Shown: positions 1,063-32,000, numbered from the stretch's first letter. The stretch: DNA of 32,000 nucleotides from Rhodobacter capsulatus SB 1003 (GCF_000021865.1 NC_014034.1:660001-692000), one strand, 5' to 3'. The notes: generated by a model not told the origin, from the letters alone. A program made the numbers and translations.

Positions 1063-1179
1063 ACCGCCGGTTCTTCCGGGCGCAAATCGCCCGCCCCGCC
1101 CGTCCGGCGGCATTGTGCGCTTGACGCCGCCCCGCCACAGGTGAACCCTACGGTTCAGAGTCGTTTCGGAGTTGAAGTC

Positions 1180-2184: not shown

Positions 2185-2188
2185 GCCG

Positions 2189-6016: not shown

Positions 6017-6093
6017 GAAAGCCTGCTTTACCGGGCAAACCGATCCTTAACGACTTGCCGTTACTGTCGGCCCAAACCCTTCGGGAGGGCCGC

Positions 6094-7926: not shown

Positions 7927-7934
7927 GGCCGGGG

Positions 7935-9794: not shown

Positions 9795-9798
9795 GCGC

Positions 9799-11043
9799 TC
9801 AGCGCGCCCCGGCCTCGAAGGTCTGCCAACAGATCGGCGTGCCGACGCTGACCCGGGCGGTCTCGGCCGGGACGAAGCCCAGACCATCGGCCTCGGCCAG
9901 CGGGAAAAGCGTGGCCGAGGTGCCCTCGCCCAGACGGTGCACCACCGGCAGGCCGTCGATTTCCCGGTTGCCCAGCCGGATCGGGAAGATCTCGGCCCGG
10001 TCCGGCTTGCGGGTCCAGTCGAAGCCGGCCCGCCCGGCACAGTGGAACAGCGGCGCCGGAACCGCCCCCTTCAGCCGGGCGATCTGCGCCGAGACGAAGA
10101 GCGTGAACCCGACCATCGCCGAGAACGGATTGCCCGGCAGGCCGGTCACCGCGGCATTGCCCAGACGGCCGAACATCACCGGCTTGCCGGGTTTGAGCGC
10201 CACTTTCCAGCCGTCGATCTGCCCGCCCGCCGCGATCAGGGCCGGGCGCAGGTGATCGCGCCCGCCCATCGACACCGCGCCCGTCGTCACGATCAGATCA
10301 TAGCGCCCCTGCAGGCTGGCGAATTTCGCCACGGTCGCCTCGGCATCGTCGGGCAGGATGCCGTGATCGTCGACCTCCGCCCCGGCGCCCTGCGCCAGCG
10401 CGATCAGCATCGGCCGGTTCACATCGGGCATCGTGTCCCGTGACGCCGCTTCGGCCCCCGGCCGGTGCAGCTCGTCGCCGGTCGAGAGGATCGCCAGCCG
10501 CGGACGGCGCACCACCGCGACCTCGGCCACGCCGTTCGAGGCCAGAAGGCCGATGTGATGCGCCCGGATCCGGGTGCCGCGGCGCAGCAAAAGCCCGCCC
10601 AGCGGCTGTTCCGACCCCACGGCGCGGATATGCGACCCCGGCGCGGGGGCGGCGGTCAGCTGCACCTCGGCGCCGGTCTCGGTCACCTCTTCGACCGGCA
10701 CGACGGCATCGGCGCCCGCGGGGATCTGCGCCCCGGTGAAAATGCGCAGCGCGGCGCCGTCGGGCAGGGGCGGCGCCTGCATCCCGGCCGCGACCGTGCC
10801 CGCGACGGGCAGCGTCAGAGCGGCGGCCAGATCGGCGGTGCGCAGCGCAAAGCCGTCCATCGCCGAGCGGGCGGCGCGGGGCAGGGCGATCTCGGCGCGC
10901 AGGCTGGTGGCAGAGGTGCGCCCGGCCGCCTGCGCCAGATCGAGGGTTTCGCTGTCGCCGATGGGCGCGACCAGACCGCAGGCCAGACGGCGGGCGGAAT
11001 CGAGGTCGAGCATCGCGGATGCCGGGTGATCGAGTGCGGGCAT
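9799..11043 (-). CDS. moeA: Molybdopterin molybdotransferase MoeA
   Basis: Conserved MoeA motifs are present: AILSTGDELHRPG, GGVSMGGRD-like AVSMGGRDH, and GLPGNPFSAMV. ATG 11043 is preceded by AAAGGAACGGCAG, giving a typical 414-aa protein. The ORF-track start at 11115 adds 24 non-conserved residues. Confidence 0.9.
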   Translation of the reverse strand: MPALDHPASAMLDLDSARRLACGLVAPIGDSETLDLAQAAGRTSATSLRAEIALPRAARSAMDGFALRTADLAAALTLPVAGTVAAGMQAPPLPDGAALRIFTGAQIPAGADAVVPVEEVTETGAEVQLTAAPAPGSHIRAVGSEQPLGGLLLRRGTRIRAHHIGLLASNGVAEVAVVRRPRLAILSTGDELHRPGAEAASRDTMPDVNRPMLIALAQGAGAEVDDHGILPDDAEATVAKFASLQGRYDLIVTTGAVSMGGRDHLRPALIAAGGQIDGWKVALKPGKPVMFGRLGNAAVTGLPGNPFSAMVGFTLFVSAQIARLKGAVPAPLFHCAGRAGFDWTRKPDRAEIFPIRLGNREIDGLPVVHRLGEGTSATLFPLAEADGLGFVPAETARVSVGTPICWQTFEAGAR

Positions 11044-15326: not shown

Positions 15327-16450
15327 CCCAAGCCTTTGCCGGGCTGACGATCGACAGCGCCGAGCTGCGCGTCGTCAACCTGCCCCTGATCACCCCTTTC
15401 ACCGTGTCGAACCAGACCCTGACCGACAAGACCTTTCCGCTGCTGACGCTGCGGGCGGACGGGGTCGAGGGCTATGGCGAGGGGGTGATGGACCCCTATC
15501 CCGATTATCTCGAAGAAACCCTGCCCGGGGCGCTGGCCTTCCTGCGCGATCTGATCCTGCCGCAGATCGTCGGCAAGCGGATCGGCAATCCGGCCGAGCT
15601 GACGGCGCTGCTCGCCCCCTGGCGCGGGCACAAGATGAGCAAGGCGCTGGTCGAGCTGGCGTTCTGGGATCTTTGGACGAAGGCCCTGAACCTGCCGCTT
15701 TGCGCGGCTTTGGGCGGCCTGCGCGACGCCGTGCCGGTGGGGGTGTCGCTCGGCATCACGCCGATCGAGCGCACGCTTGAACGCATCGCCGAGGCCGAGG
15801 CCGCGGGCTACAAGCGCATCAAGCTGAAGGTGGCGCAGGGCCATGACCTGAAGCTGCTCGAGGCGGTGCGGCGCGAGTTCCCCGCCGTCAAGCTGACGGT
15901 CGATGCGAACACGGCTTACGGTCTGGCCGATCTGGCGACGCTGCGGGCGATGGACCGTTTCGATCTGGATTACATCGAGCAGCCCCTGGCGGTCGATGAC
16001 ATCCACGATCACGCGCTGGTGCAACGCGAAATCGCCACCGCGATCTGTCTCGATGAATCGATCCGCACCCCCGTCGATTGCCGCAAGGCGCTGGCGGCGG
16101 GGGCGGCACGGGTGATCAACATCAAGGTCGGCCGGGTCGGCGGCTATAGCGCGGCCAAGGCGATCCATGACGTGTCGGAGGCCTTCGGCGCCCCGGTCTG
16201 GTGCGGCGGCATGCTCGAAAGCGGGATCGGCCGGGCGCATAACATCCATCTGGCAACCTTGCCGAATTTCACCAAACCGGGCGACACTTCCTCGGCCAGC
16301 CGCTATTTCCACCGCGACATCATCGCCGAACCGCTGGAGGCCACGGGCGGGCTGATGCCGGTTCCGGGGAATGGCGCGGGGATCGGGGTGACACTGGATC
16401 GGCCGTTCCTGAACACGGTCACCCGTTCGACCGAGGAGTTTCGCCCGTGA
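15323..16450 (+). CDS. Enolase-superfamily enzyme of the MLE subgroup (o-succinylbenzoate synthase / N-succinylamino acid racemase type)
   Basis: ATGA overlap with the ATPase gene. KxK motif (YKRIKLKV); metal ligands in VDANTAY, YIEQP and LDES; second catalytic Lys in NIKVGRVGG. The 375-aa length fits the OSBS/NSAR family. Confidence 0.8.
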   Translation: MTQAFAGLTIDSAELRVVNLPLITPFTVSNQTLTDKTFPLLTLRADGVEGYGEGVMDPYPDYLEETLPGALAFLRDLILPQIVGKRIGNPAELTALLAPWRGHKMSKALVELAFWDLWTKALNLPLCAALGGLRDAVPVGVSLGITPIERTLERIAEAEAAGYKRIKLKVAQGHDLKLLEAVRREFPAVKLTVDANTAYGLADLATLRAMDRFDLDYIEQPLAVDDIHDHALVQREIATAICLDESIRTPVDCRKALAAGAARVINIKVGRVGGYSAAKAIHDVSEAFGAPVWCGGMLESGIGRAHNIHLATLPNFTKPGDTSSASRYFHRDIIAEPLEATGGLMPVPGNGAGIGVTLDRPFLNTVTRSTEEFRP

Positions 16451-17172
16451 CCGCCGCGGTGATCCTGCGCGAGCTTGCGGGCGTTGCGGAACTGCAGCAG
16501 GCCGAACGCTTTCAGGTCGAGGTCTGGGGCGAGGGCGAGCGGCCCGACAACAGCGACATCATGCTGGCGCTGCAGCACGAAGGCGCGCTGGTGGCCGGGG
16601 CCTTCGCGGGCGATCAGATGCTGGGGTTTCTCTTCGGTTTCCCCTCGGCCACGCCGGGGGTGCAGCATTCGCACCGGCTGGCGGTGTCGCAAAAGGCGCG
16701 CGGGCTGGGCCTTGGCGCGCGGCTGAAATGGTTCCAGCGCGACTGGTGTCTGGCGCGCGGCATCACGCTGGTGCGCTGGACCTATGATCCCCTGCGCGCG
16801 ATCAATGCCGGGCTGAACATCGCCGTTCTGGGGGCGACGGCGCGGGAGTATCTGCCCGATTATTACGGCCCGATGCCCGGCATCAATGCCGGTCTGCCCT
16901 CGGACCGGGTGATGGCGGTCTGGCAGCTGGACGCGCCGCAGGTCGTCGCCCGGGCCGCGGGCCAGTCCCCGACCTTGCCGCCCGCCGCGGCCACAGCCGG
17001 GATCCCGGCCGATATCGATGCGCTCTTGCAGGCCGATCCCGACCGCGCCCTGGCCGAGCGGATGCGCCTGCGCGCCGCGCTGCAGGAGGCCTTCGCCGCC
17101 GGTCTGGCGATCACCGGCTTCGACCGCCAGAGCTGCCGCTATCTGCTCGACCGGCCTGCGGCGGCCGCTTAA
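16447..17172 (+). CDS. GNAT-like acyltransferase-fold protein, specific function unknown
   Basis: GTGA overlap with the upstream enolase-family gene. Acyl-CoA-binding-like motif (ARGLGLGARLK), followed by WTYDPLRAINAGLNI ... DYYG. The CDS call is solid; the function is tentative. Confidence 0.6.
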   Translation: MTAAVILRELAGVAELQQAERFQVEVWGEGERPDNSDIMLALQHEGALVAGAFAGDQMLGFLFGFPSATPGVQHSHRLAVSQKARGLGLGARLKWFQRDWCLARGITLVRWTYDPLRAINAGLNIAVLGATAREYLPDYYGPMPGINAGLPSDRVMAVWQLDAPQVVARAAGQSPTLPPAAATAGIPADIDALLQADPDRALAERMRLRAALQEAFAAGLAITGFDRQSCRYLLDRPAAAA

Positions 17173-20100
17173 AGCGACAGCGCCGCGATCTGCGCCGCCG
17201 TCATCGCGTCGCGCTGCGTCTCGGTGAAGGCGGCCACCTGCAGTCCGGTCAGCGCCCGGATGTCGGCGGTTTCCAGCGCCGCGATCTGATCGAGCGTGAA
17301 AGCCGCGATCTGCGCCGTGGTCCAGCCGCCCATCTGCGTCGTGCGCAGGGCGCGGATCGCCCCCGTCGACAGCGCCGCGACGGCACCGGTGCTCAGCGCA
17401 TGGATCTGCGCCGTGGTCAGGCTGGCGACCTGCGCGGTCATCAGCGCCGCCGCCTGCGTGCTGACCAGGCTGCCGATCTGCGCCGTGCCAAGCCCGACGA
17501 TCGCCGCGGCGCTGATCCGGGCCAGGTCCTGCGCCTCCAGCGCCCGCACCTGGCTTGTCGTCAGCGCCGCCACCTGGCTCAGCGTCAGGCTTGCGGCCTG
17601 CGTCGTGGTCAGCGCCCGCACATCCTCGGTGCCAAGGCCGCGCAGCGCCGCGGTGGACAGCGCCGCCAGCGCCGCGGTGCCGATCGCGGCCACCTGATCG
17701 GTCGAGAGCGCCGCGATCTGCGTCGAGCCGAGCGCGCGGATCGCGGTGGCCGAAATGCCGCGCACCTGATCGGTCGAGAGCGCCGCGGCCTGCGCCGTGG
17801 TCAGCCCGGCAAGCGCCGTGGCGGTCACCCGGGCGATCTGCGGCGCGGAAATCGCGGCGATCTGCGCGGTGTCCAGGCTGGCAAGCTGGCCCGAGCCCAG
17901 ACCGCCGAAAGCCGCCGCCGAAAGCTGCGCCAGATCCTGCGTCTCGAAGGCGGCGATCTGCGCGGCGCTCAGCGCGGCGATCTGCGCCGAGCCGAGAACC
18001 GGCGCCTGCGCCGTGGTCAGAGCGGCGATCTGCGCCGTCGAGAGCCCGCGCAGCGCTGCCGTGCCAAGGCCCGCCACCGCCCCGGTGCCCAGGGCCGCGA
18101 TCTGCCCGGTCTCGAAGGCCGCAAGCTGCGCCGAGCCGAAAGCCGGGGCCGCGGCGGCGGCGATGGCGCGGATCTGCGCCGTCGTCAGCGCCGCGATCTG
18201 CGGCGCGCCGAGGCCCGCGATCGCCGCCGATCCCAGCCGCGCCACCTGCGTTTCGGTCAGCGCGGCGATCTGCGCGGCGTCAAAGGCCGCCATCTGCACC
18301 GCGCCGATCCCCGCCATCGCCCCGGGCGCAAGCTGCGCGACATCCGCCGCCTCAAGGGCGGCGATCTGCGCCGCCGACAGCGCCCGGATCTGCGCCGAGC
18401 CGAGCCGGGCGACGTGCGCCCCGGTCAGCGCCGCGACATCGGCGGTTTCCATTCCGCGCAGCGCCGCCGTGGTCAGCGCCGGAATGACCGCGCTGCCCAG
18501 CGCCGCGATCTGCGCCGTGCCAAAGGCCGCCAGCTGCGCCGAGCCGAGCGCGGTGACCGCCGCGCTCGACAGCGCCGCGACCTGCGCCGTGCTCAGCGCC
18601 GCGACTTGCCGCGTCGTCAGCCCCGCAATCGCCGCGCTGGTCAGCCGCGCGATCTGCGCCGTGGTCAGGGCGCGGATCTGCGCCGTGCTCAGGCTTGGCA
18701 TCAGCGCCGTCCCGATCCCCGCCATGGCCGAGACCGAAAGCTGGGCGATATCCGCGGTTTCCAGCGCCGCGATCTGCGCCGTGCTCAGCGCCGCGATCTG
18801 CGTCGCGCTCAGCCGTGCCGCCTGCGCCGTGGTCAGCGCCACGATGTCATTCGTGCCCAGCCCCTTCAGCGCCGCGGTGCTCAGCGCGCCGATCGCCCCG
18901 GTCGACAGCGCCGCCACCTGCCGCGTCGACAGGGCGGCAAGCTGCGCCGAGCCCAAAGCCTGCAGCGACGAGGGGGCGATCTGCGCCAGATCCTCGGTCT
19001 CGAAGGCGGCGATCTGCGTCGTCGTCAGCGCGCCGATCTGCGCCGAGGTCAGCCGCGCCGCCTGCGCCGTGGTCAGCGCCGCGATATCCTCGGTCGCAAG
19101 GCCCGCCAGCGCCGCCGTGGTCAGCGCCGCCACCGCCGCCGTGCCCAGCGCCTCGATCTGCCCGGTGGTGAAGGCGGCCACCTGCGTGGCGCTGAAGCCG
19201 CGCGCCGCCGCGGCGGAAATCCCCCGCGCCTGATCGGTCGAGAGCGCCGCGATCTGCGCGGTCGAAAAGGCCGCGATCGCCGCCGTGCCCAGCTGCCCGA
19301 TCCGCGTCGCGCCCAGCGCCACGATCTGCGCCGTGCCCAGCCCGGCCACCTGCGGCGCGCCGAAGCCCGCCATCGCCGCGCTGGACAGACGGCCGAAATC
19401 ATCGGTTTCCAGCGCCCCGATCTGGGTCGAGGTCAAGGCCGCCAGCTGAACCGAGGTCAGCGCCGCCACCGCCGCGTCGTTCAGCGCGGCCATGTCCGCC
19501 GTGTCCAGCCCCGCCAGCGCCGCCGTGCTCAGCGAGGCCACCGCCGCCGTGCCCAGCGCCGCGATCTGCCCGGTGTCGAACCCGGCCAGCTGCGTCGCGC
19601 TCAGCGTCCGGGCCGCGGTCGCCGACAGCGCGCCGATCTGCTCGACCGAGAACCCGGCCAGCTGCGCCGTGCCCAGGCCCAGAACCGCCGCCGTGCTCAG
19701 CCGCGCCACCTGCGCAAGGCTCAGCGCCGCGATCTGCGCCGTGCTCAGCCCGACGATCTGATCCGAACTCAGCCCCTGCAACGCCAGCGTGCCCAGCTGC
19801 CCCAGATCCGCGGTCTCGATCGCGCGGATCTGCGCCGTGCTGAAAGCCGCGATCTGGCTCGAGGTCAGCGCCGCCACCGCCTCGCCCTCCAGCGCGGCGA
19901 TGTCATTGGTGCCCAGCCCGGCCAGCGCGGCGGTGCCCAGCCCGCCGATCGCCGCCGTCGACAGCGCCGCGACCTGCGCCGTGCCCAGCGCGGTCAGCTG
20001 GGCCGAACTCAGCCCGCGCGCCGCCGTGGCCGAAAGCGCGCCCAGCTGCTCGAGCGACAGGCTGGCGATCTGCGCCGTGCTCAGCCCGGTCAGCGCGCCG

Positions 20101-23100
20101 CTGGAGAGCGCCGTGACCTGATCGGTGGAGAGGCAGGCCAGCTGCGCCGTCGACAGCGCCCGCGCCTGCGCCGAGGTCAGCCCCCGGATCGCGGTTGGGG
20201 CCACCTGCGCCAGATCCTCGGTCTGGAAGGCGGCGATCTGCGTCGTCGTCAGCGCGGCGATCTGGCGCGACATCAGCGCCGCCGCCGCCTCGGCACTCAG
20301 CGCGACGATGTCATTCGTGCCCAGCCCCGCCAGCGCCGAGGGGCTCAGCGCCGACAGCGCCGCCGTCGACAGCGCGGCGATCTGCGCGGTGGAAAGCGCG
20401 GCGATCTGCGCCGAGCCCATCCCGGCGCCGCCGCCCGCCGAAAGCGCCGCCAGCTGATCGCCCGCCAGCGCCGCCACCTGCGCCGTCGACAGCGCGCCCA
20501 TCGCCGTGCTTGTCAGGCAGGCCACCTGTTCCGTGCCCAGGGCCGCCATCTGCGTCAGGCTCAGGCCCTTGACCTGATTGGAGCCAAGCCCGGGCATCGC
20601 CGCGGTGCCCAGCCGCGCCAGATCGCCCGCTTCCAGCGCCGCGATCTGCTGCGAACTCAGCGCCGCGACCTGGGTCGAGGTCATCGCGCCGACCTGATCG
20701 CCGCTCAGCGCCGCCACCGCCGCCGCGTTCAGCCCCTTGAGCGCCGCCGTGCCCAGGGCCGCCATCGCCACGGTGCTGAAGGCCGCGATCTGCGCCGTGT
20801 CCAAAGCCGCGATCTGCGACGAACTCAGCGCGCCCGCGGCGGTGCTCGACAGCGCCGCGATCTGATCGGCGGTCAGCCCGGCGATCTGGCCGGTGGTCAG
20901 CCCGGCAATCGCCGCGCTCGACAGGCTGGCGATCAGATCGGCGCCAAGCACGCCGATCTGCGCCCCGCTCAGGCATTTGATCTGCGCCGAGCCGAGCCCG
21001 GCCAGCGCCGTCGTCGAAAGCCGGGTCAGATCCTCGACCTCGATCGCCGCCAGCTGCGCCGTGCTCAGCGCCGCCACCTGCTGCGAGGTCATCGCCGCCA
21101 TCTGATCGCCGGTCAGCGCGACGATGTCATCGGTGCCGAGGCCCTTGATCGCATTGGCACTCAGCGCCGTCACGCTGGCCGTATTCAGCGCCGCAAGCTG
21201 CGTCGTGCTCAGCGCGGCCATCTGCGCCGAGGTCAGCCCGCGCACCGCATTGCTGGACAGCGCCCGGATCTGCGCCGTGCCGAAGGCGCCGATCTGGCCA
21301 GCACTCAGCCCCGGGATCGCGCTGCCGGTCAGCCCGGCGATCTGCCGCGTCGACAGCGCCGCGATCTGCGCGCCTGAAAGCCCGGCCATCGTGGCCGAGC
21401 CCAGCCCGGAGAGCGCCGTCGCGCTGATCTGCGCCAGATCCGCCGCCTCGAGCGCCGCGATCTGCGTGCTGGTCAGCGCGCCGATCTGCGCCGAGCCCAG
21501 ACGCGCCGCCTGCGCCGTCGTCAGCGCCACGATGTCATCGGTGCCAAAGCCGCGGATCGCCGCCGTGCCCAGCGCCGCCACCGTCGCCGAAGCCAGCGCC
21601 GCGATCTGCGCCGTGCTCAGCGCCGCCGCCTGCACCGAGCCAAGCCCGGCCACCGCAAGGCTGGAGAGCGCGCCGACCTGATCGGTGCTCAGCTTGCCGA
21701 TCTGCGTCGCGCTCAGGCCCGAAACCGCCGCGCTGCCCAGCCCCGCGATCTGCGCCGTGCCCAGCGTCGCAAGCTGCGCCGTCGACAGCGCCCGCGCCTG
21801 CGCCGAGCCCAGCCCCGCCAGCGCCGCCGACCCGAGCACGGCCATGTCCTCGGTCTCCAGCGCGGCGATCTGCGCCGTCGAGAGCGCCGCGACCTGCGCC
21901 GATTTCAGCGCCCGCGCCTGCGCCGTCGTCAGCGCCGCGATATCCTCGGCCGAAAGCCCGCGCAGCCCCGCCGTCGACAGACCGGCAATCGCCGCCGTGG
22001 CCAGCGCCGCGATCTGCCCGCTCTCAAGGCCCGCCAGCTGCGCCGAACTCAGCCCCGCCGCCCCGCTGCCGCTGATCGCCGCCAGCTGCGCCGTGCCAAG
22101 CGCGGCGATCTGCGCCGTGCTGAACCCCGCCACCGCGGCACTGCCCAGCCCCGCCAGGATCGCCGTGCCCATCGCCGCCAGATGCGCCTCTTTCAGCGCC
22201 GCGATCTGCGCCGCGCCCAGCCCCGCCGCCGCCTCGCCCGAGAGCCGGGCGAAATCCTCGACCTCCAGCGCCGCGATCTGTTCGGTGCTCAGCGCCGCCA
22301 CCTGCGTCTCGGTCATCGCCGCCGCCTGCGCCGTCGTCAGCGCCACGATATCCTCGGTCGTCAAGGCCCGCAGCGCCGCCGTGCCCAGCGCCGCAAAGGC
22401 GCCACTGCCCAAAGCCGCGATCTGCGCGGTGGACAAGGCGTCGATCTGCGCCGAACTCAGCGCCTCGGCGGCCTCCTCGGACAGCGCCGCGATCTGCCGC
22501 GTGCCCAGAACCCCCAGCTGGGCCGTGCTCAGCGCCGCCATCTGCGCCCCGGTCAGCGCCGCCAGTTCGATCGTGCTCAGCCCGGCCATGTCCTCGGTCG
22601 AAAGCCCCTTCAGCGCGGCGGTGCCGATCGCCGCAAAGGCCGCGCCGGAAAAGGCGCCGATCTGCTCGGCCGAGAGCGCCGAAAGCTGCGCCGAGGTCAG
22701 CGCCGTCGCCGCCCGGCTGGCCAGCGCGCGGATCTGCGCCGTCGAAAAGGCGCCGATCTGATCGGTGCCCAGCCCCTGGATCATGCCGCTGGTGAGCCCC
22801 GCCATCTGTTCGGTCGCCAGCGCCGCCAGCTTGTCGGTGGACAGGCTGCGGATCTGCGCCGAGCCGAGCCCGGCCAGCGCCGCAGTGCCCAGATGCGCGA
22901 AATCGACGGTCTCGAAAGCTGCCAGCTGCTCGGTGCTCAGCGAGGCGAGCTGCGTCGCGGTCAAGGCCGCCGCGGCATCGGCGCTCAGCGCCGCCACATC
23001 CTCGGTCGCCAGCCCGCGCAGCGCCGCCGTGCCCAGCGCGGCCACCGCGGGCTCGTTCAGCGCGGCGATCTGCGCCGTGCTCAGCGCCGAAAGCTGCGCC

Positions 23101-23618
23101 GAGCTGACCGCCGCCGCCGCCGTCGCGGTCAGCACATTCAGTTGATCAAGGGTCAGCGCCGCGATCTGCCGCGTGGCCAGCGCCCGCATCTGCGTCGCGG
23201 TCAGGCCAAGCATCGCATCCGGGCCCAGCATCGCCAGATCGGCGGTTTCAAAGGCGCTGATCTGCAGCGTCGAAAGCGCCGCCACCTGCGCCGAGGTCAG
23301 CGCCGCCGCCTGTTCGGTGGTCAGCGCGACGATCGCCTCGGTCGAAAGGCCGCGCAGCGCGACGGTGTTCAGAACGGCGATCTGCGGAAACAGCAGCGCG
23401 GCGACCTGGTCGGTGGTCAGCATCTGCATCTGCAGCGGCGTCAGCCCCGAGACGAACTCGGTCGACAGCGCCTGGATCTGCGCCGCGCCCAGGGCGCGCA
23501 TCTGCTCCGAACTGACACCGACGATATCGCCCGTCGTCAGACCGGACATGACCGAGGTCGACAGCGCCGCAATTTCCGCCGTCGTCATCGCGCTGAGAAG
23601 GGACATTCTGCCACTCAC
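17169..23618 (-). CDS. Giant (2149 aa) Ala/Leu/Thr/Ser/Gln-rich octapeptide-repeat protein, function unknown
   Basis: Single 6.45-kb ORF. GTG at 23618, with an alternative ATG at 23606 preceded by GGGTGAG. No signal peptide, TM segment, RTX (GGxGxD) or other known domain was recognised by eye. The whole protein is built from 8-residue units. Confidence 0.8.
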   Translation of the reverse strand: MSGRMSLLSAMTTAEIAALSTSVMSGLTTGDIVGVSSEQMRALGAAQIQALSTEFVSGLTPLQMQMLTTDQVAALLFPQIAVLNTVALRGLSTEAIVALTTEQAAALTSAQVAALSTLQISAFETADLAMLGPDAMLGLTATQMRALATRQIAALTLDQLNVLTATAAAAVSSAQLSALSTAQIAALNEPAVAALGTAALRGLATEDVAALSADAAAALTATQLASLSTEQLAAFETVDFAHLGTAALAGLGSAQIRSLSTDKLAALATEQMAGLTSGMIQGLGTDQIGAFSTAQIRALASRAATALTSAQLSALSAEQIGAFSGAAFAAIGTAALKGLSTEDMAGLSTIELAALTGAQMAALSTAQLGVLGTRQIAALSEEAAEALSSAQIDALSTAQIAALGSGAFAALGTAALRALTTEDIVALTTAQAAAMTETQVAALSTEQIAALEVEDFARLSGEAAAGLGAAQIAALKEAHLAAMGTAILAGLGSAAVAGFSTAQIAALGTAQLAAISGSGAAGLSSAQLAGLESGQIAALATAAIAGLSTAGLRGLSAEDIAALTTAQARALKSAQVAALSTAQIAALETEDMAVLGSAALAGLGSAQARALSTAQLATLGTAQIAGLGSAAVSGLSATQIGKLSTDQVGALSSLAVAGLGSVQAAALSTAQIAALASATVAALGTAAIRGFGTDDIVALTTAQAARLGSAQIGALTSTQIAALEAADLAQISATALSGLGSATMAGLSGAQIAALSTRQIAGLTGSAIPGLSAGQIGAFGTAQIRALSSNAVRGLTSAQMAALSTTQLAALNTASVTALSANAIKGLGTDDIVALTGDQMAAMTSQQVAALSTAQLAAIEVEDLTRLSTTALAGLGSAQIKCLSGAQIGVLGADLIASLSSAAIAGLTTGQIAGLTADQIAALSSTAAGALSSSQIAALDTAQIAAFSTVAMAALGTAALKGLNAAAVAALSGDQVGAMTSTQVAALSSQQIAALEAGDLARLGTAAMPGLGSNQVKGLSLTQMAALGTEQVACLTSTAMGALSTAQVAALAGDQLAALSAGGGAGMGSAQIAALSTAQIAALSTAALSALSPSALAGLGTNDIVALSAEAAAALMSRQIAALTTTQIAAFQTEDLAQVAPTAIRGLTSAQARALSTAQLACLSTDQVTALSSGALTGLSTAQIASLSLEQLGALSATAARGLSSAQLTALGTAQVAALSTAAIGGLGTAALAGLGTNDIAALEGEAVAALTSSQIAAFSTAQIRAIETADLGQLGTLALQGLSSDQIVGLSTAQIAALSLAQVARLSTAAVLGLGTAQLAGFSVEQIGALSATAARTLSATQLAGFDTGQIAALGTAAVASLSTAALAGLDTADMAALNDAAVAALTSVQLAALTSTQIGALETDDFGRLSSAAMAGFGAPQVAGLGTAQIVALGATRIGQLGTAAIAAFSTAQIAALSTDQARGISAAAARGFSATQVAAFTTGQIEALGTAAVAALTTAALAGLATEDIAALTTAQAARLTSAQIGALTTTQIAAFETEDLAQIAPSSLQALGSAQLAALSTRQVAALSTGAIGALSTAALKGLGTNDIVALTTAQAARLSATQIAALSTAQIAALETADIAQLSVSAMAGIGTALMPSLSTAQIRALTTAQIARLTSAAIAGLTTRQVAALSTAQVAALSSAAVTALGSAQLAAFGTAQIAALGSAVIPALTTAALRGMETADVAALTGAHVARLGSAQIRALSAAQIAALEAADVAQLAPGAMAGIGAVQMAAFDAAQIAALTETQVARLGSAAIAGLGAPQIAALTTAQIRAIAAAAAPAFGSAQLAAFETGQIAALGTGAVAGLGTAALRGLSTAQIAALTTAQAPVLGSAQIAALSAAQIAAFETQDLAQLSAAAFGGLGSGQLASLDTAQIAAISAPQIARVTATALAGLTTAQAAALSTDQVRGISATAIRALGSTQIAALSTDQVAAIGTAALAALSTAALRGLGTEDVRALTTTQAASLTLSQVAALTTSQVRALEAQDLARISAAAIVGLGTAQIGSLVSTQAAALMTAQVASLTTAQIHALSTGAVAALSTGAIRALRTTQMGGWTTAQIAAFTLDQIAALETADIRALTGLQVAAFTETQRDAMTAAQIAALSL
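17178..23609 (-). repeat. Coding tandem array: 268 consecutive 24-nt (octapeptide) units, with a 17-unit (408-nt) higher-order repeat
   Basis: I parsed the translation manually into 8-mers from residue 4 to residue 2147. Every unit ends in a hydrophobic residue and no register shift occurs. The most common plus-strand 24-mer is close to CGCCGCGATCTGCGCCGTGCTCAG, the reverse complement of codons for L-S-T-A-Q-I-A-A. Confidence 0.9.
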
Positions 23619-23785
23619 CCTGAAGGGGCCCCTGCGGGCCCGGATCCGTTTCTGGCACCGCCGTTCTGGAATGCCGCGGGGCCGATCATCGGTCAGGGGA
23701 GTGAAGGAAATCTTAAATGCAAAGGATCATTGCAGATTTCGCCTTTGCGGCGGGCCGGTTCGCGGGCCGCCCGCCCGGCGGCCGC
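23619..23785 (-). promoter_or_regulatory. 167-nt intergenic region holding a GC-rich hairpin, an AT-richer island and small inverted repeats; candidate terminator and/or promoter between the orphan gene and the giant gene
   Basis: On the minus-strand RNA a GGCGGGC...GCCCGCC stem lies just after the upstream stop. GCAAAGG-N16-CCTTTGC follows (23719-23725 / 23742-23748), then AUUUAAGAUUUCC. This is the only AT-rich stretch in the cluster. I could not identify a convincing -35/-10 pair. Confidence 0.3.
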
Positions 23786-24583
23786 TCAGTTCCGTTGCGG
23801 CTGGCTGAGCTGGATGCCCGCCTCCAGCCCGGGGGTGCGTTTTTGCGCCTCCTGCGCGGCCAGTTCCGCGACGTTCTCCCTGAGGATCTGCGACGACTTG
23901 CCGAAAGACAGGTCGTCGATCGCGAAACCGGCCCCCTCCGCCCCCACCAGCGAGAACTGAACCCCGGCGATCCGGTCCGATCCGTCGCCGGTGACCAGCG
24001 CCAGATATTCCATGCCGGTGCCCAGGTTGCGCACGCCGCCGATCAGCCGCCCCTGCCGGTCAAAGGCTTGGATCGCGGTCGATTGCGGGGTGTCGAAATA
24101 GCCCCCGGCCAGCCCGACCCCGGCGACGTCGCGATCGAAGATCATCGTGACCGGGCCGTTGAACACCGGCGTTCCCGAGAGCGAGGGGCTGTGCGGGTTT
24201 GCCCCGTCCTGCCTGATCTGCGTCGCGGGCGCGGTCTGCGCCAGGCGCAGCGGCGCCAGCGGCGTGCCGATCACGCAGCCGGTCAGCGCGGCCCCGGGCG
24301 GACAGGTCGCGGCGGTGCCGATCGCCTGACCTTCGAAGAAACCGCCGAACCCCACGATCACCCCGCCCTCGGGGGCGCCATAGGTGGGCGGCGCATAGAT
24401 CGGGTTCCGGCTCCCCCGCGGCAATTCGTCAAAGGTGATCTCTCCGGCGTCGGGCCCGAAGGCCTCGCGCGGGATCCGGATCACGCTGCCGAATTCCCCG
24501 GACGTCTCGGCCCGCGCCGGATCGCCGCCGCCCGTGGCCAGCGCCAGCGCCATCAGCGCCGTGACCAGAAAAGGGTGCATCAT
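23786..24583 (-). CDS. Secreted protein of unknown function (265 aa)
   Basis: Strong RBS (GGGGGAGGAG) before ATGATG. Signal peptide MMHPFLVTALMALALATGGGDPARA. The mature part is Gly/Thr/Pro-rich and looks beta-rich, ending with GFAIDDLSFG and then a polar tail. No known motif was recognised. Confidence 0.7.
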   Translation of the reverse strand: MMHPFLVTALMALALATGGGDPARAETSGEFGSVIRIPREAFGPDAGEITFDELPRGSRNPIYAPPTYGAPEGGVIVGFGGFFEGQAIGTAATCPPGAALTGCVIGTPLAPLRLAQTAPATQIRQDGANPHSPSLSGTPVFNGPVTMIFDRDVAGVGLAGGYFDTPQSTAIQAFDRQGRLIGGVRNLGTGMEYLALVTGDGSDRIAGVQFSLVGAEGAGFAIDDLSFGKSSQILRENVAELAAQEAQKRTPGLEAGIQLSQPQRN

Positions 24584-24613
24584 CTCCTCCCCCTCGCGCT
24601 CATTTCGCCCGTC

Positions 24614-26245
24614 TCATTGCGTCAGGGCCAAGGCCAGAAGCGCGCCCTGATCCATGTCGGGACGCAGCTTGTATTGTGCAAGATCGCGCCAGAACTGATC
24701 CAGACCGACCACCAGCGCCTGTTCTTCCGACAGCAGAAGCGACTCGCGCAGCTCGCGATAGGCGGCGCGGGAATCGGCCTCGGTGATGTCGACGGCCAGC
24801 GTGCTCAGGGCGCGCGACATCGACAACAGGAATTCGTGCTGCCGGGCCCGGGTCGCGCGCAGCCGCGTGCCCAGCGTCTCGATCTGCACCTGCCGCTGCG
24901 GATCCGGTGCGATCGCCTGCAGATCGATCAGGGTCTTGACGTTGTAGACAAGCCGCCCGATCTCGGCGTCGGTCTGGATCAGCGAGGCCTTGAAGATCGT
25001 GCCCGCCAGCAGCGTCGATCCGGCCGACTGCCGCCGGGCGGCGTTTTCGCTGTCGCGCGCCGCCCGCAGATCGGCCTGCAGCGCCACAAGCGCGGTGCGG
25101 CGCTGCGGGTCCAGCTCGTTCTCGATGATCTCCGCCAGCGCCCCGGCCTGATCCCGCGCCGCCGCCCCGCCTTGCCCGCCGCCGCCTTCCCCCTCGGTCG
25201 CCCGCGCCACCCAGTGATCGCGCAGCCGCGTCAGTTCCGCATCCGAGGTGGCGACATGCATCGACAGCACCAGCCGCAGCCCGAAAGTCTCGGGCGCGGT
25301 GGCCTTGCCGGTCTGGGCCTGAAACGGCGGATATTCGGTGCGCGCGGCGGAATAGATCTGCTCGGCGCTCGACAGGACCGAGCCGCCGCGCGTCACCAGC
25401 CCGCCCACCTGTCCCTGATCGCGGCCGAAGATGTTGACATGAAAGGGTTCCAGCATCAGCTCTTCGACATTGCCATAGACGTCGAAAAGCCCGAGCGGAT
25501 TGGGCCGCCGCAGCCCGACCGGGCCGATCGTGCCGCGCGCCGAGCCGGGGGCGAAATGAAAAGCGTAATCGCCCAGCGCGCCTTCGGCGAAAAAGCGCAG
25601 CGCGGCGAACTGGTTCGCATCGACCCGTGCGCCGCCGCGGGCGGCAAATTCCCATTCCGTCTCGGTCGGCAGGCGCAGATGCGGCAGCGCGCCATCCTGC
25701 CGGGGCAGGGCCGCGGCGGCATGTCCGTAAAGCCATTCCGTGTAGCGCCCGGCCAGATCGACCGCGGCAAGCCAGCTCAGCCCGCCCTGCGCCAGCCGGT
25801 CCTTGCGCCCGGCCTTGCCGCAGGGCCGGGTCAGGGCGTTGAACTGCCCCTCGGTCAGCTCGTAGCGGGCGATGAAATAATGCGTGCTGGCCGGGGTCGT
25901 GCCGGAAAAGCCGCCGCGCAGCCAGGTCTGGCGCAGATATTCCGCATAGCCCTTTTCCGGGTCCGACCGGCCCAGCCGGATCCGCAGATCCGACAGCGGA
26001 TCGCCCGCATCCGAGGGCACGTCGACGCGCTGGAACGCCATCGCCCCGCCGCAGGGCATCGGTAGCACCAGATCGGCCGGGCTGCCGCCGGGCGTCGCCG
26101 CGCCGGGGTCGTAAAGCGCGACCGGCCAGTCGATCGCCGGACCCTCGGGCGCGGGCCCCCCGGGCGCCGGGTCGGCGCCGCCCGGCTGCGGCGCGGCCAG
26201 ACCCGCAAGCGCCAGCGCAAAAGCCGAAAGGGGCACCAACCGCAT
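24614..26245 (-). CDS. Secreted FGE-sulfatase (SUMF1/formylglycine-generating-enzyme fold) domain protein with a ~200-aa C-terminal helical domain
   Basis: Signal peptide MRLVPLSAFALALAGLAA. Family motifs: RLPTETEWEFAARGG, NPLGLFDVYGNVEELM and TRGGSVLSS (equivalent to RGGSW). The FGE-like region is about residues 60-330 (25256-26068). The tail is predicted helical (Leu/Arg/Gln/Ala-rich). Confidence 0.8.
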   Translation of the reverse strand: MRLVPLSAFALALAGLAAPQPGGADPAPGGPAPEGPAIDWPVALYDPGAATPGGSPADLVLPMPCGGAMAFQRVDVPSDAGDPLSDLRIRLGRSDPEKGYAEYLRQTWLRGGFSGTTPASTHYFIARYELTEGQFNALTRPCGKAGRKDRLAQGGLSWLAAVDLAGRYTEWLYGHAAAALPRQDGALPHLRLPTETEWEFAARGGARVDANQFAALRFFAEGALGDYAFHFAPGSARGTIGPVGLRRPNPLGLFDVYGNVEELMLEPFHVNIFGRDQGQVGGLVTRGGSVLSSAEQIYSAARTEYPPFQAQTGKATAPETFGLRLVLSMHVATSDAELTRLRDHWVARATEGEGGGGQGGAAARDQAGALAEIIENELDPQRRTALVALQADLRAARDSENAARRQSAGSTLLAGTIFKASLIQTDAEIGRLVYNVKTLIDLQAIAPDPQRQVQIETLGTRLRATRARQHEFLLSMSRALSTLAVDITEADSRAAYRELRESLLLSEEQALVVGLDQFWRDLAQYKLRPDMDQGALLALALTQ

Positions 26246-26248
26246 CGT

Positions 26249-27448
26249 TCAGGTTCCTTCCCGCAGGGTCCGGGCCGGATCGACCCGCTGTGCCGCCCAG
26301 GCCGACAGCGTCGCCGACACCAGCACCAGACCCAGGATCGCCAGGATGATCGCCCCGCCCTGCGCCGGGCTGATCCGGGCGATGCTGCCCTCGGCTTCCA
26401 GCCCCGCGCCGAACATCCGCGTGGCGATCCGGGCGGCCAGCGCATAAAGCAGGAAGGACACCGCGATCCCGATCAGCGCCGTCGCCAGCGCCTGCACCAG
26501 CGGCAGCAGCGCCAGCGCCCGGGCGGGCAGACCAAGCATCGCCAGCGCGGCCAGCGTGCCCCGCTTGCGCATCGCATCCGACCAGAAGCCGAACAGCAGC
26601 GCCGCCGCCAGCCCGCAGCAGGCCAGCGCCGTGGTCAGCCCCAGCGCCAGATCCAGATTGCGCCCCAGCCCGAGCAGCATCGCCACGTCACGGCTGCGCG
26701 CCGAGGTGGCCAGCCCCAGCGCCGTCTCGACCCGTTGCTGCAGCGGCCCCAGATCCTCCAGCCGGCGCGCATAGATCCGCACCCCCGCATAGGTCGCGAC
26801 CCGGTCCGCCAGCGGCCGCCCCTCGGTGATACCGTGCTCGGGCAGGGCATAGGCGTCATAGAAGGCCTCGACCGTCTCCAGCGTGGCAAAGGGCGCAAGC
26901 ACGCTGCGCCCCGCGCTCACCGTCTCGGGCAGCACCGCCCGCACCGTCATCGGCAGGCGCAGCTGCTTCGGGCGGGTCTCGGCCTGGGTCACCAGATCGA
27001 CCGTGTCGCCGGTCGCGATCTGCATCTGCTGCGCCAGCCCCGCCGAGACCGCAACCTCGGCAGGGCCCAGCACCAGCCCCGGCGGCAGGTTCGGATCCCC
27101 CGCGCCCGAGGGGATCAGCAAGGCCTCGCGCAGCGAGACCCCGGGCCCGGCGTGATGCACGGTCACATAATCGAACTGGCTGCGGACCTTCGGGGTCACG
27201 AAGGCGACCTCGGGCCAGGCGCGCAGCGGCGCGATCCGGGCCTCGGTCAGCTCGGCATTGCCCTGGCTGTCGATCTGCAGGCTGGCGGGATCGGCCATCA
27301 TCCGGCCGATCAGCGTGGAATAGACACCGTTCTTCACCCCGAACAGGATCAGGAGCGGCACCAGAACCCCCACCATCACCGCGACATTGCACAGCAAAAA
27401 CAGCCGGTCGCGGAACAGGTCGCGCAGCGCCAGAGAGACGATCAGCAT
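26249..27448 (-). CDS. FtsX/MacB-type ABC transporter permease (4 TM with a large periplasmic domain)
   Basis: TM1 (LFLLCNVAVMVGVLVPLLILFGV), then a ~210-aa extracytoplasmic domain, then three C-terminal TMs in an FtsX-domain arrangement. The start overlaps the ATPase stop by 7 nt (ATGCTGA). Confidence 0.8.
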   Translation of the reverse strand: MLIVSLALRDLFRDRLFLLCNVAVMVGVLVPLLILFGVKNGVYSTLIGRMMADPASLQIDSQGNAELTEARIAPLRAWPEVAFVTPKVRSQFDYVTVHHAGPGVSLREALLIPSGAGDPNLPPGLVLGPAEVAVSAGLAQQMQIATGDTVDLVTQAETRPKQLRLPMTVRAVLPETVSAGRSVLAPFATLETVEAFYDAYALPEHGITEGRPLADRVATYAGVRIYARRLEDLGPLQQRVETALGLATSARSRDVAMLLGLGRNLDLALGLTTALACCGLAAALLFGFWSDAMRKRGTLAALAMLGLPARALALLPLVQALATALIGIAVSFLLYALAARIATRMFGAGLEAEGSIARISPAQGGAIILAILGLVLVSATLSAWAAQRVDPARTLREGT

Positions 27449-28182
27449 CGGACCTCCCGCGCTTCGGACCGCACCAGCCCCGGACGCAGCTCGCGGGCGA
27501 CGAATTCCAGCCGCCGCGGGCCCAGCCCCTCGATCCGCGCCAGATCATGCGACGACAGCACCACCCCCGCGCCGTCCTCGCGCGCGGTGTCGAGCAGCAA
27601 CCGCATCACCGCATCGGCCGCCGCGGGATCGAGCGCCGCCGTCGGCTCGTCGGCGATCACGAAGGCCGGGCGATGCGCCAGCGCCCGCGCGATCGAGACC
27701 CGCTGCCGCTGCCCGATCGACAGCGCCGAGGGCGGCAGATCGGCCAGCGCGTTCAGCCCGAGCCGGTCGAGCAGCGCCGCGACCCGGGCCGGATCGCGGC
27801 GCCCGCTGATCCTTTGCGTCAGCGCCACATTGGCCCGGACCGACAGGAACGGCACCAGCGCCCCCGCCTGCGGCACGAAGCCGAACAGCGCGCCGCGCAT
27901 CCGCGCAAGCCCGGTGCCGCGCGCGCCAAAGCGCCACAGCCGCGCCAGATCGGTCCGCCGCCGGTCCGGCGCGGTCCAATGATATCCGGCCGGGGGCTCT
28001 GGCGCCCGCAGAAGGCTCAGCAGTTCCAGAAACAGGGTCTTGCCGGTGCCGCTGGCGCCGGTGACGCAAAGCACCTCGCCCGACACCAGCTCCAGCGCCG
28101 CGACGCGCAGCGTGAAGCTGCGCTCCCCCTTCGACAGGGTCGTCGCGAGCTGGTCGATCCCGAGCACGCCGCCTGTCCTCAT
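27442..28182 (-). CDS. ABC transporter ATP-binding protein (MacB/LolD/FtsE-like)
   Basis: Walker A GASGTGKT, signature LSIGQRQRVSIARAL, Walker B FVIADEPTAALD, H-loop LSSHD. ATG 28182 lies 1 nt after the vWA gene stop. The ORF-track start at 28437 would overlap that gene. Confidence 0.85.
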   Translation of the reverse strand: MRTGGVLGIDQLATTLSKGERSFTLRVAALELVSGEVLCVTGASGTGKTLFLELLSLLRAPEPPAGYHWTAPDRRRTDLARLWRFGARGTGLARMRGALFGFVPQAGALVPFLSVRANVALTQRISGRRDPARVAALLDRLGLNALADLPPSALSIGQRQRVSIARALAHRPAFVIADEPTAALDPAAADAVMRLLLDTAREDGAGVVLSSHDLARIEGLGPRRLEFVARELRPGLVRSEAREVRC

Positions 28183-28183
28183 C

Positions 28184-30100
28184 TCAGGGCAGGACGTCGA
28201 AGGGCATGGCAAAGACATATTCCCCGTCCGGCGCCCCCGGCTCCAGCGGCGTCCAGACCGTCGGATCCAGCAGCCATTTGCGATATTGCACGATCTTGCG
28301 GTGCAGCCCGTCGAGGATCTCGCGCCGCTGCACCGCGCTTTGCGCCCAGATCGTGCGGTCGATCGACAGAAGCTGGCTGCGATAGGGCAGATCCTCCAGA
28401 AATTCCAGCGCGCCGCCCAGCGATCCGGCCTCGGCATCGATCAGCCGGTCCGGGTTTTGGGCCATCCGCGCGATCACCGACTGGATCTGGTCGAAAAAGG
28501 CGTCGGTCTCCTCGGCGCTGCGGTTCTGCTCGCCTGCGGTGCCGATCTCGGTCAGCAACTCCGCCATCGTCGCCATCTCGTTCTTGCTGACCAGAAGCCG
28601 CGGTTCGACCGCCAGCCGACGCGGATCCTCGACGGCCTTTTCCGACATCCAGCCGCGCAGCACGTCGGGCGGCGCCACCCCGGGCTGCCCGCCCAGCCAG
28701 GCCAGCTGCATCGCCAGACCCAGTTCGGCGATCCGCGCATCGCCCCCCGCCTCGGGCGGCAGGGCGGGTTGCTGCCCCATCGCGGTGCGGATCGTGTCGG
28801 TCAGCGCCACCACCATGCGCTCGACCGTGGCGGCAAAGACCGCCTCGTCGCCATTTTCGATCGGATAGTAGAAATCCCGGCCGCCAAAGCCCGAGAGCTG
28901 GCGATAGGCCGCCTCGGCATAGCCGTGCTGCGCCGTGCCCCCGGCGGGGGTGCGCAGATGCAGCGTCAGCACCGCGATTCCATGCGCCTCGGCATCGGCG
29001 CGCAATTCCGCCGGGCCGATCTGCGAGCGGGCATCGGGGTCGTCCTGCGCATCGGGCCCGGCATCGGTGATCAGGATCACGTAGCGCCCCTCGAACGGAT
29101 CGGCGCCGCCGCCGGTCCAGTCGATCGTGCCGACCGCATCCTCGACCCCGGCCATGCTGTCCTCGTTGAAGCCGGGGGTCGAGACCGTCGCCACCTCGGC
29201 CGCGGCATCGAGCGCCGCCAGCACCTCGGCCTGATCCGCCCGCCGCGCCAGCGGGGCCAGCGTGCGGGTGCGGTAGCCGATCCCGGCCGGATCGCTGGCG
29301 GGGTTGTCGCGAAAGCCGATCACCCCGAACTGCACCCGCGCGCCCAGATCGGTGGCACGCAGCGACTGCACGATCCGCGCCACCGCGGCGCGGGTGCTGT
29401 TGATATAGGGCCGCATCGAGCGGGTGGTGTCGATGACGAAGACCACCCCGGCATCAAAGGGCGAGGGCGGCGCGGCCGCGGGCGGCGATGGCGCCCGCTG
29501 CGGGATCGAGGCCAGTTCCAGCAGCAGGTCGGGTTCATAGGTCAAGGGATGCAGGATCTCCTCGAAGGAGAGGATCGGCATCAGATAAAGCTTTTCGCGG
29601 ATGTTGATGAATTCGGCCGGTTCCACCGACACCACCTTTTGCGCCGGATCGACATGGCCGCTGTCGCTTTGCGCCACCAGATCGGCCAGCCGGGCGCGGA
29701 CATCCTCGTCCTGCATCAGGGCTTCCAGCGTCGCGCGGTCTTCCAGCATCACCTGACGGCTGCGTCCGGCGGCATTGGTGAAGGCGGCGGTGATGTTCTG
29801 CTTCCACTCCACCACCGACCCGGCCCTGACCCAGCCGGTCGGCCCGGCCGAAGCCGAGGTGCCGACGCGCAGCCACTCCGCCTGGCGTTCATAGACGTAA
29901 AACGGGTGAAAGGCCGCCTCGGTCTTCAGAACCGCGCCGTCGGGGGCGGCAAGGACCTGCGTTCCGGGCCGGGTCAGCACCCGCTGGAACGTCGCCTGCT
30001 TGCCCTCCATCAGCAGCGGACGGGCCTGCAGCTCCGCCCCGGCCAATCCGAGGGCAAGCCCGAGCGCGATCAGCGCGGTCCTAGCGGCAAAAGTCATCAA
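28184..30100 (-). CDS. Secreted von Willebrand factor type A (vWA) domain protein with a MIDAS motif, flanked by N-terminal beta-rich and C-terminal helical regions
   Basis: Signal peptide MMTFAARTALIALGLALGLAGA. MIDAS: VVFVIDTTRSM (D-x-T-x-S, codons at 29417-29431), with a later VILITDAGPD strand. An SH3-like segment (WLRVGTSASAGPTGWVRAGSVVEW) lies near the N-terminus. Confidence 0.8.
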   Translation of the reverse strand: MMTFAARTALIALGLALGLAGAELQARPLLMEGKQATFQRVLTRPGTQVLAAPDGAVLKTEAAFHPFYVYERQAEWLRVGTSASAGPTGWVRAGSVVEWKQNITAAFTNAAGRSRQVMLEDRATLEALMQDEDVRARLADLVAQSDSGHVDPAQKVVSVEPAEFINIREKLYLMPILSFEEILHPLTYEPDLLLELASIPQRAPSPPAAAPPSPFDAGVVFVIDTTRSMRPYINSTRAAVARIVQSLRATDLGARVQFGVIGFRDNPASDPAGIGYRTRTLAPLARRADQAEVLAALDAAAEVATVSTPGFNEDSMAGVEDAVGTIDWTGGGADPFEGRYVILITDAGPDAQDDPDARSQIGPAELRADAEAHGIAVLTLHLRTPAGGTAQHGYAEAAYRQLSGFGGRDFYYPIENGDEAVFAATVERMVVALTDTIRTAMGQQPALPPEAGGDARIAELGLAMQLAWLGGQPGVAPPDVLRGWMSEKAVEDPRRLAVEPRLLVSKNEMATMAELLTEIGTAGEQNRSAEETDAFFDQIQSVIARMAQNPDRLIDAEAGSLGGALEFLEDLPYRSQLLSIDRTIWAQSAVQRREILDGLHRKIVQYRKWLLDPTVWTPLEPGAPDGEYVFAMPFDVLP

Positions 30101-31999: not shown

Positions 32000-32000
32000 G

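Follow-up and report, generated by a model that had tools for sequence, protein, structure and literature searches.

A giant minus-strand gene made of eight-residue units

The DNA analysed here is a stretch of 32,000 nucleotides from Rhodobacter capsulatus SB 1003 (GCF_000021865.1 NC_014034.1:660001-692000), referred to below as the window, with a G+C content of ~70%. It carries on its minus strand a giant gene whose product, at present an unannotated hypothetical protein, is built throughout of eight-residue repeats (octads). The gene and the array that it encodes are placed as follows.

17169..23606, minus strand: giant gene; the ATG at 23606 opens 2145 codons, and the stop codon occupies 17169-17171 (open reading frame list and translation, G+C at third codon positions, PF20080 match)
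17178..23609, minus strand: octad array, 268 units of eight residues (24 nt), unbroken, with zero register breaks

The open reading frame (ORF) offers two start codons. An alternative GTG start at 23618 gives an ORF of 17169..23618 on the minus strand, encoding 2149 aa plus the stop, and the ATG at 23606 (MSLLSAM...) is where gene calls in other assemblies begin. The latter is likely the true start, and with it the protein starts and stops almost at unit boundaries. Counted from this ATG, the protein has 2145 aa, a mass of 206 kDa, an isoelectric point (pI) of 4.4 and a grand average of hydropathy (GRAVY) of +0.70. The G+C content at codon positions 1, 2 and 3 of the minus frame is 0.70, 0.60 and 0.92 respectively, which is the pattern expected of a real gene in this genome. 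A reading of the array coordinates on the plus strand was tried and discarded, its translation being an Arg-rich antisense with an internal stop. The original prediction, made from the sequence before this analysis, had placed the array at the right coordinates; it left the strand unstated and missed both the 17-unit super-repeat and the difference in copy number between assemblies that are described below.

When octads are cut from residue 4 of the 2149-aa translation, three N-terminal and two C-terminal residues are left over and the remainder divides into 268 units. A run-finder based on a position-specific scoring matrix (PSSM) returned one single in-phase run of 267 units. Amino-acid identity between the translation and its shifted copy is 0.36 at a lag of 8 residues, versus ~0.11 at lags out of phase with the octad, and Tandem Repeats Finder (TRF) independently reported periods of 24 and 408 nt.

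Position-wise counts over the 268 units yield the consensus [S/G/T]-[T/S]-A-[Q/A/D]-[I/L/V]-A-[A/G]-L. Position 1 is mostly Ser (98), Gly (63) or Thr (57); residues competent to act as a helix N-cap (S/T/D/N) occupy it in 165/268 units, to which Gly adds 63 more. Thr (133), Ser (56) and Ala (41) prevail at position 2 and Ala (127) at position 3. Position 4 is Gln in 145 units, Ala in 72 and Asp in 30, with Gln, Glu and Asp together making up 177/268. Two positions are almost or entirely apolar: position 5 (I103, L60, V48, A26, M23, F6; apolar in 266/268) and position 8 (L217, F24, I14, M8, V4, W1; apolar in 268/268 and never polar). Between them, Ala holds position 6 in 162 units, and position 7 is Ala in 155 and Gly in 67. 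The whole protein contains 0 Tyr, 3 Cys and 1 Trp, and only 12 Asn in 2149 residues. These recounts bear out the earlier description in several respects: an unbroken 268-octad array at 17178-23609 in which no register break occurs, a Leu in about four fifths of the units at position 8 (81%, 217/268) where no polar residue is ever found, and identical numbers of Tyr, Cys and Trp. The absence of a signal peptide and of a transmembrane segment was likewise borne out, as neither a signal-peptide-like N-terminus nor a transmembrane segment was found in the giant protein, the longest purely apolar run of which measures 9 residues.

A 17-unit super-repeat

Autocorrelation revealed a second, longer period of 17 units (136 aa, 408 nt), with an identity of 0.51 at a lag of 136 aa and of 0.65 at 408 nt; the signal also rises at 80 and 216 aa. 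The whole array comprises a 10-unit head, one block of 14 units, thirteen of 17 and two of 10, and the last three units of a 20-unit C-terminal block. Its segments, in the order in which they are translated, are listed here.

23034..23609, minus strand: N-terminal units 1-24, more divergent, a 10-unit then a 14-unit block; signal peptide not found
22626-23033, minus strand: 17-unit block (block table)
22386..22625, minus strand: 10-unit block, units 42-51 (block table)
19122..22385, minus strand: core of eight consecutive 17-unit super-repeats, units 52-187 (block table; TRF period of 408 nt)
18882-19121, minus strand: second 10-unit block, units 188-197 (block table)
18474-18881, 18066-18473 and 17658-18065, minus strand: further 17-unit blocks (block table)
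17178..17657, minus strand: C-terminal 20-unit tail, units 249-268, carrying the sole Trp; RTX motifs or another recognisable domain not found

Thirteen non-overlapping 17-unit blocks could be aligned without gaps over 136 columns (alignment A4), each sharing 46-56% identity with the first block. The units inside a block are not equivalent: units 1, 7, 11, 14 and 17 are of an "xxAA-h-x-G/A-L" type, and units 2 and 6 carry Asp at position 4. In a Fourier analysis over units 52-187 the top harmonic was found at 3.4 units, corresponding to 5 cycles per 17 units, and it was also the top harmonic of the all-feature spectrum. This harmonic accounts for 37% of the power in the Ala signal of position 4 and for 29% in the Gly signal of position 7.

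The array is old and its register is maintained

In pairwise DNA comparisons, units are on average 55% identical and super-repeats 65% (range 56-72%), and the longest exact direct repeat in the array measures 36 nt. This low identity indicates that the array is old and is not being homogenised, in agreement with the original prediction, which had judged the units too diverged for a recent amplification. In three other R. capsulatus assemblies the gene is intact and encodes 2281 aa, that is 285 units instead of the 268 of the window allele; the predicted copy number was thus right for the window allele and does not hold for the other three. Two near-identical R. capsulatus assemblies carry the 2281-aa form, and the flanks of the R. 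capsulatus locus L002 differ from the window by 1 mismatch in 8.4 kb upstream and 0 in 2.1 kb downstream. The divergent strain SP108 also encodes 2281 aa in 285 units, in perfect register, at 91.6% amino-acid identity (8.4% diverged). The alleles differ by a single indel, exactly one 17-unit block (136 aa, 408 nt) in size, which is missing from the window allele.

21120..21128, minus strand: junction at which the window allele lacks the 408-nt block, with an 8-nt microhomology, GACATCGT; the flanking blocks are 66% identical

Compared with the three other assemblies, the window allele also shows three private G<->C differences, at 19222, 19213 and 18414, one of which turns a conserved position-4 Gln codon from CAG to CAC. 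The missing block and these differences may reflect either a real, strain-specific in-register deletion or errors of an older assembly.

Between the window allele and that of SP108, the ratio of nonsynonymous to synonymous substitution rates (dN/dS) is 0.23 at a dS of 0.21. Amino-acid changes between the strains concentrate at octad positions 1 and 3 (40 and 45 changes) and are few at positions 4, 8 and 7 (5, 12 and 13 respectively). Judging from these comparisons, the octad register is kept by purifying selection: SP108 is in perfect register, the only indel is one whole block, dN/dS is 0.23 and positions 4, 7 and 8 are spared. The suggestion that selection holds the phase, already put forward in the original prediction, is supported by the same four observations.

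We considered whether the gene might not be real, being either an artefact of assembly or a chance ORF lying opposite a true plus-strand gene. The window allele is indeed 408 nt shorter than those of the three other assemblies and carries the three private G<->C differences, and long plus-strand ORFs, for instance 17400-21377, overlap the giant gene. However, the frame is kept in four independent assemblies and in further contigs from short-read runs (Logan), and a collapse during assembly is not expected among repeats that share only 56-72% DNA identity. Third-position G+C, the Pfam match described below and dN/dS all favour the minus frame, and the plus-strand translation at the array coordinates is, as noted, an Arg-rich antisense with an internal stop. 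The probability of such an artefact or chance ORF is negligible and we regard this explanation as essentially refuted already. The ORF is a real gene, conserved and under selective maintenance.

A new and extreme member of the ALTTAQ family

The giant protein matches the Pfam family PF20080 (ALTTAQ_rpt, "ALTTAQ repeat") with E = 0 and 1249.2 bits over 81 stretches, against a gathering threshold of 26.4 bits; the model spans 38 residues, or ~4.75 octads. A scan of the giant protein against NCBIfam matched no family. With this Pfam score and ~1,500 protein clusters found at E <= 1e-10, the view implied in the original prediction, which did not recognise the array as a described repeat family, had to be abandoned. 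On the strength of these profile matches, the giant protein adds a new, extreme member to a known and catalogued, albeit experimentally unstudied, family: in the literature searched we found no paper naming ALTTAQ and no experimental study of any natural ALTTAQ member, and a search for PF20080 returned only unrelated papers.

A profile built from two super-repeats was run against 1.84 billion protein clusters at 50% identity and retrieved 3,499 cluster representatives at E <= 1e-3, of which 1,491 were at E <= 1e-10. The best 120 relatives are giant proteins, 25-46% identical to the R. capsulatus protein, and their domain partners were counted by hand from the table of these 120. RTX repeats (PF00353) are present in ~14 of them, domains of two-partner secretion (TPS and/or ESPR; PF05860, PF13018) in ~21, G8 in ~12 and calpain-like proteases in ~9; the other fused domains include Big, Calx-beta, He_PIG, FG-GAP, DUF4347, and LysM with SH3.

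The octad pattern is common to the R. capsulatus protein and its ALTTAQ relatives, one of which, P0051, bears ...LTTAQIAALTTAQVAAL... arrays. The two differ in architecture. Among 333 relatives retrieved, in-phase runs reach 105 units at most and the repeat makes up at most about half of the protein, being joined to other domains, whereas in the R. capsulatus protein 268-285 units make up 100% of the sequence. The latter also has a regular 17-unit super-repeat and is the most regular member among these 333. Exact-sequence look-ups did not find the giant protein on record and its own cluster was absent from both large protein searches; the claim that its array is the longest is therefore limited to the 333 relatives retrieved.

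Members of the family were also encountered in a viral context. On a phage-like contig (L009), positions 3359-9928 encode a protein of 2189 aa in which ALTTAQ repeats are joined to He_PIG and Big_13 domains, in the company of S21, ClpS, an intein-containing ribonucleotide reductase and numerous small ORFs, and a PHROG family of unknown function, phrog_15773, matches the giant protein with E = 5e-48. The phage-like contig and the PHROG match suggest that the ALTTAQ repeat is also used by phages, perhaps in fibres. A tblastn search against isolated phages returned only a weak match in a Mycobacterium phage. Two relatives, P0010 and P0133, seemed to share a contig, which proved to be a mere coincidence of two contigs equal in length.

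A predicted alpha-helical screw

In order to obtain a structural model, AlphaFold2 was supplied with an input alignment of non-overlapping paralogous blocks. The models reached a predicted local distance difference test score (pLDDT) of 91.8 and a predicted template modelling score (pTM) of 0.79 for 272 aa, and 94.3 and 0.83 for 136 aa. Each octad is predicted, at high confidence, to form a single short helix: DSSP assigned 17 helices of 4-6 residues to the 136-aa model and 33 helices to the 272-aa model, with zero strands. The only solved structure that matched well by sequence was 9ZEM, HeliScrew4, with E = 1.2e-13 for a single segment and E = 1.1e-23 for the super-repeat profile, gapless over 108 residues. 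The best gapless identity between the giant protein and 9ZEM is 42%, in register, and the residue class is common to both at 6/8 octad positions.

HeliScrew4 is an 8-mer alpha-helical screw designed de novo, the first of this kind to be solved, in a 2025 study, with a crystal structure at 2.2 A; 8-mer screws consist of short S/T N-capped helices with 2.5-4.0 units per turn and an apolar core (bioRxiv 10.64898/2025.12.04.691947). Its designers call the alpha-helical screw a "dark matter" fold, found a single natural example among PDB entries, 7QLR, and raised the question of why nature leaves it unused (bioRxiv 10.64898/2025.12.04.691947). The natural protein resembles this design in its 8-residue unit, [S/T]-x-x-[Q]-[I/V/F]-A-A-L, in having one N-capped short helix per unit, as predicted here, and in its apolar core. 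It differs in that HeliScrew4 has ~14 units, Pro at N1 and a charged Glu/Asp/Lys surface, whereas the natural protein uses Thr/Ser at N1, exposes an Ala/Thr/Ser/Gln surface, is ~20 times longer and is organised into a super-repeat. The original prediction had proposed capped short helices or a solenoid with S/T-x-x-Q N-caps, to which both the modelled helix of 4-6 residues per octad and the profile match to HeliScrew4 lend support.

The capping box and the hydrophobic staple are established motifs of helix starts. In the giant protein, Leu8 of the preceding unit together with Ile/Leu/Val5 would make up a hydrophobic staple that brackets a Ser/Thr-x-x-Gln capping box; staple pairs are present in 239/267 units. 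Staple and capping box would start a 4-6-residue helix in each unit, positions 5 and 8 plus Ala at 6 and 7 would pack as a continuous apolar core, and the chain would wind into a single-chain alpha-helical screw forming a thin, rigid rod. The 17-unit super-repeat would then probably represent five turns of the superhelix (3.4 units in each), and such a five-turn repeat would align the small-residue "Ala4/Gly7" units down one side of the rod. It is to be noted that the 3.4-unit sequence period falls inside the range of 2.5-4.0 units per turn published for 8-mer screws. If each turn takes ~3.4 units and the pitch is ~1 nm, the rod would be, as a rough estimate, ~70-80 nm long.

Several observations weigh against this model. 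The helix-initiating Pro at N1 (position 2), which is frequent, albeit not obligatory, in the designs, is found in 6/268 units only. A GRAVY of +0.70 is unusually hydrophobic for a soluble monomer. A Foldseek search against the PDB lists neither 9ZEM nor 7QLR (9ZEM may be missing from that library), and its best matches are to mesothelin, with template modelling scores of 0.3-0.48 and root mean square deviations of 5-12 A at probabilities of up to 1.0. Since both screw structures are missing from the Foldseek matches, the equivalence with HeliScrew rests on the sequence and on the pattern of secondary structure. Finally, the backing for 3.4 units per turn is modest, as the period was picked after seeing the spectrum. 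Mesothelin and ARM-like superhelices likewise look right-handed and are made of short helices, with much longer repeat units, and the folds are not equivalent. Against viral models, Foldseek found no convincing structural neighbour.

A different architecture, in which 24 residues (three octads) make up each coil of a leucine-rich-repeat (LRR)-like structure or of a beta-solenoid, with an ice-nucleation-like array as a variant, was weighed against the same data. Weak profile matches to LRR proteins (E = 5e-8 to 1e-3) were indeed obtained and the Pfam model LRR_EndoS scored a whole-sequence E of 3e-15, though zero single stretches pass; the weak matches are explained by the Leu periodicity and are driven by composition. 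The match to HeliScrew4 is stronger by ~15 orders of magnitude in E-value, AlphaFold2 predicts zero strands at high confidence, and an Asn ladder, Tyr and a Pfam ice-nucleation match are all lacking. A coil of this kind is accordingly very improbable. Identity with the leucine-rich repeat proper (LxxLxLxxN/C) was rejected, with Asn numbering 12 in 2149 residues and predicted strands zero. Ice-nucleation proteins are beta-solenoids with Tyr ladders. Their nested hierarchy of 8, 16 and 48 residues, within very long in-phase arrays, has a counterpart here in the periods of 8 and 136 residues, and this hierarchy, which favours the ice-nucleation variant, is the part of the analogy drawn in the original prediction that stands; Tyr, a beta prediction and a Pfam ice-nucleation match do not follow. 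An identification with the 16-residue AGYGSTxT-type repeats was also rejected: the Pfam match is absent, Tyr numbers 0, the prediction is all-helical and the sequences are unrelated.

We conclude from the models and the profile match that the giant protein probably folds into an alpha-helical screw rod. The comparison suggests that nature does use this fold, and does so extensively, in giant proteins of bacteria and in some proteins of phages. A broader proposal would take ALTTAQ as the natural alpha-helical screw and the R. capsulatus protein as its purest form, a 268-285-unit rod in which 17 units make five turns and an Ala4/Gly7 stripe pairs rods into a previously unrecognised bacterial fibre. 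We put this forward tentatively and consider it rather doubtful as a whole; if it were true, the small-residue stripe could mediate the lateral pairing of rods. The main interest of the gene lies in offering a natural example of a fold lately presented as nearly absent from nature. A protein of a single domain type, in perfect register, with a regular super-repeat and in a genetically tractable organism offers nature's own clean test of three points: what the fold looks like, how register is kept up over 6.4 kb and what role such rods play. The analysis also corrects an annotation gap and points out that the window allele, one super-repeat short, may hold an assembly or sequence error.

Probable location of the rod

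The likeliest role of the giant protein would be that of an extracellular or cell-surface fibre, spacer or adhesin, because the domain partners of the family are mostly secretion and surface modules. We give a rough probability of 0.6 to the combined reading of a real, selected gene encoding an ALTTAQ octad array that folds into a screw rod and serves as such an extracellular or surface element. Many ALTTAQ members are RTX adhesins or TpsA/FHA-like proteins (PF00353, PF05860, PF13018). The giant protein itself is acidic (pI 4.4) and nearly Cys-free, and an acidic, Cys-poor composition is typical of proteins that are exported unfolded, such as substrates of type 1 secretion systems (T1SS). In this it is like type 1 and type 5b exoproteins, and a lengthy rod whose small units fold locally would suit vectorial export. 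Export would bypass the Sec pathway, possibly in a T1SS-like manner, and folding unit by unit in a vectorial way would suit such a route.

Other data speak against an extracellular location. The giant protein lacks RTX motifs over its whole length (0 GGxGxD nonapeptides, no match to PF00353) and has no match to the TPS domain (PF05860), its N-terminus being already repeat. Neither a recognisable secretion signal nor an adjacent T1SS or TPS partner was found among the genes of the window, the transporters of which are of the ABC-2/HlyD_3 efflux type (1141-6016) and of the MacB/FtsX type, the latter in an operon linked to srf genes. Other "pure" ALTTAQ giants (P0008, P0009 and P0051) are orphans among unrelated metabolic genes. 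Unlike RTX and TpsA proteins, the R. capsulatus protein has no RTX nonapeptides, TPS domain, retention or ligand-binding module, or linked transporter genes.

The main rival keeps the same rod and places it inside the cell, as a cytoplasmic scaffold, ruler or filament. The failure to find a signal peptide, RTX repeats or a TPS domain in the protein and dedicated secretion genes in the window is what this reading would expect, and so is the orphan position of the pure relatives P0008, P0009 and P0051 among metabolic genes. In contrast, every informative domain fusion of the family is extracellular or linked to secretion, and the acidic, Cys-poor composition is typical of unfolded export. We hold an intracellular rod to be a minority possibility, and the surface or extracellular rod to be the better reading.

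Genomic neighbourhood

The giant gene is flanked by the following features.

23607..23785, minus strand: untranslated spacer, 179 nt to the ATG and 167 nt to the GTG at 23618
23786-32000, minus strand: upstream operon, with srfC / Virul_Fac, a 370-aa gene, VWA, an ABC ATPase, an FtsX/MacB-like permease, an FGE-sulfatase-like gene and a 265-aa secreted protein
16447-17172, convergent to the giant gene: GNAT acetyltransferase gene, abutting its stop codon

The operon is given in the order that runs from the far end of the window toward the giant gene, srfB coming first and lying outside the window. The same order was found in L001, L002 and a distant metagenomic contig, L006, and we found no description of this extended srf operon in the papers searched. 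The arrangement raises the question of whether the giant protein is a cargo or partner of the operon, through export, modification or joint assembly. Both lie on a common strand, the giant gene starts just 167-179 nt further downstream, according to which start codon is taken, and this arrangement is present in all R. capsulatus assemblies examined. However, among 89 loci scanned, 80 of which were anchored on homologues of the 265-aa protein, an ALTTAQ ORF adjoins the gene of this protein only in the R. capsulatus loci L001-L003, L005 and L010. In L006 the operon ends at a 287-aa homologue, followed by an unrelated convergent gene, and in R. capsulatus a GC-rich hairpin follows the stop codon of the upstream gene. 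The adjacency is species-specific and is consequently not evidence of a function shared with the operon. A partnership of this kind appears unlikely. A conserved linkage to the srf-VWA-ABC-FGE operon was ruled out by the 89-locus scan and by L006.

The spacer may carry the giant gene's own promoter. A sigma-70 consensus was not found in it, a terminator scan gave nothing significant and its RNA fold was not significant either (z = -1.3). In this otherwise GC-rich spacer we observed an AT-richer inverted repeat, AAATCTGCAATGATCCTTTGCATTTAAGATTT, at about 23700-23731 on the minus strand, which could be a candidate binding site for a regulator or a promoter element.

The 265-aa protein (23786-24583, minus strand) is identical to ADE84396.1 of strain SB1003 and is named "PEP-CTERM sorting domain-containing" at NCBI. 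In an alignment with 23 homologues, a PEP-CTERM-like tail is found only in gamma/beta-proteobacterial and cyanobacterial members; the R. capsulatus protein ends in ...GIQLSQPQRN, without the PEP-CTERM anchor. Elsewhere in the window, the stretch 6016-7770, between the ABC-2 transporter genes and a CHASE4 histidine kinase, contains zero ORFs with the third-position G+C signature of a gene, and a 556-aa minus-strand ORF at 6166-7836 has no Pfam match. On its other side, the giant gene meets the GNAT gene end to end at 17169-17172 with zero intergenic space, which leaves no room for a terminator of its own in either gene.

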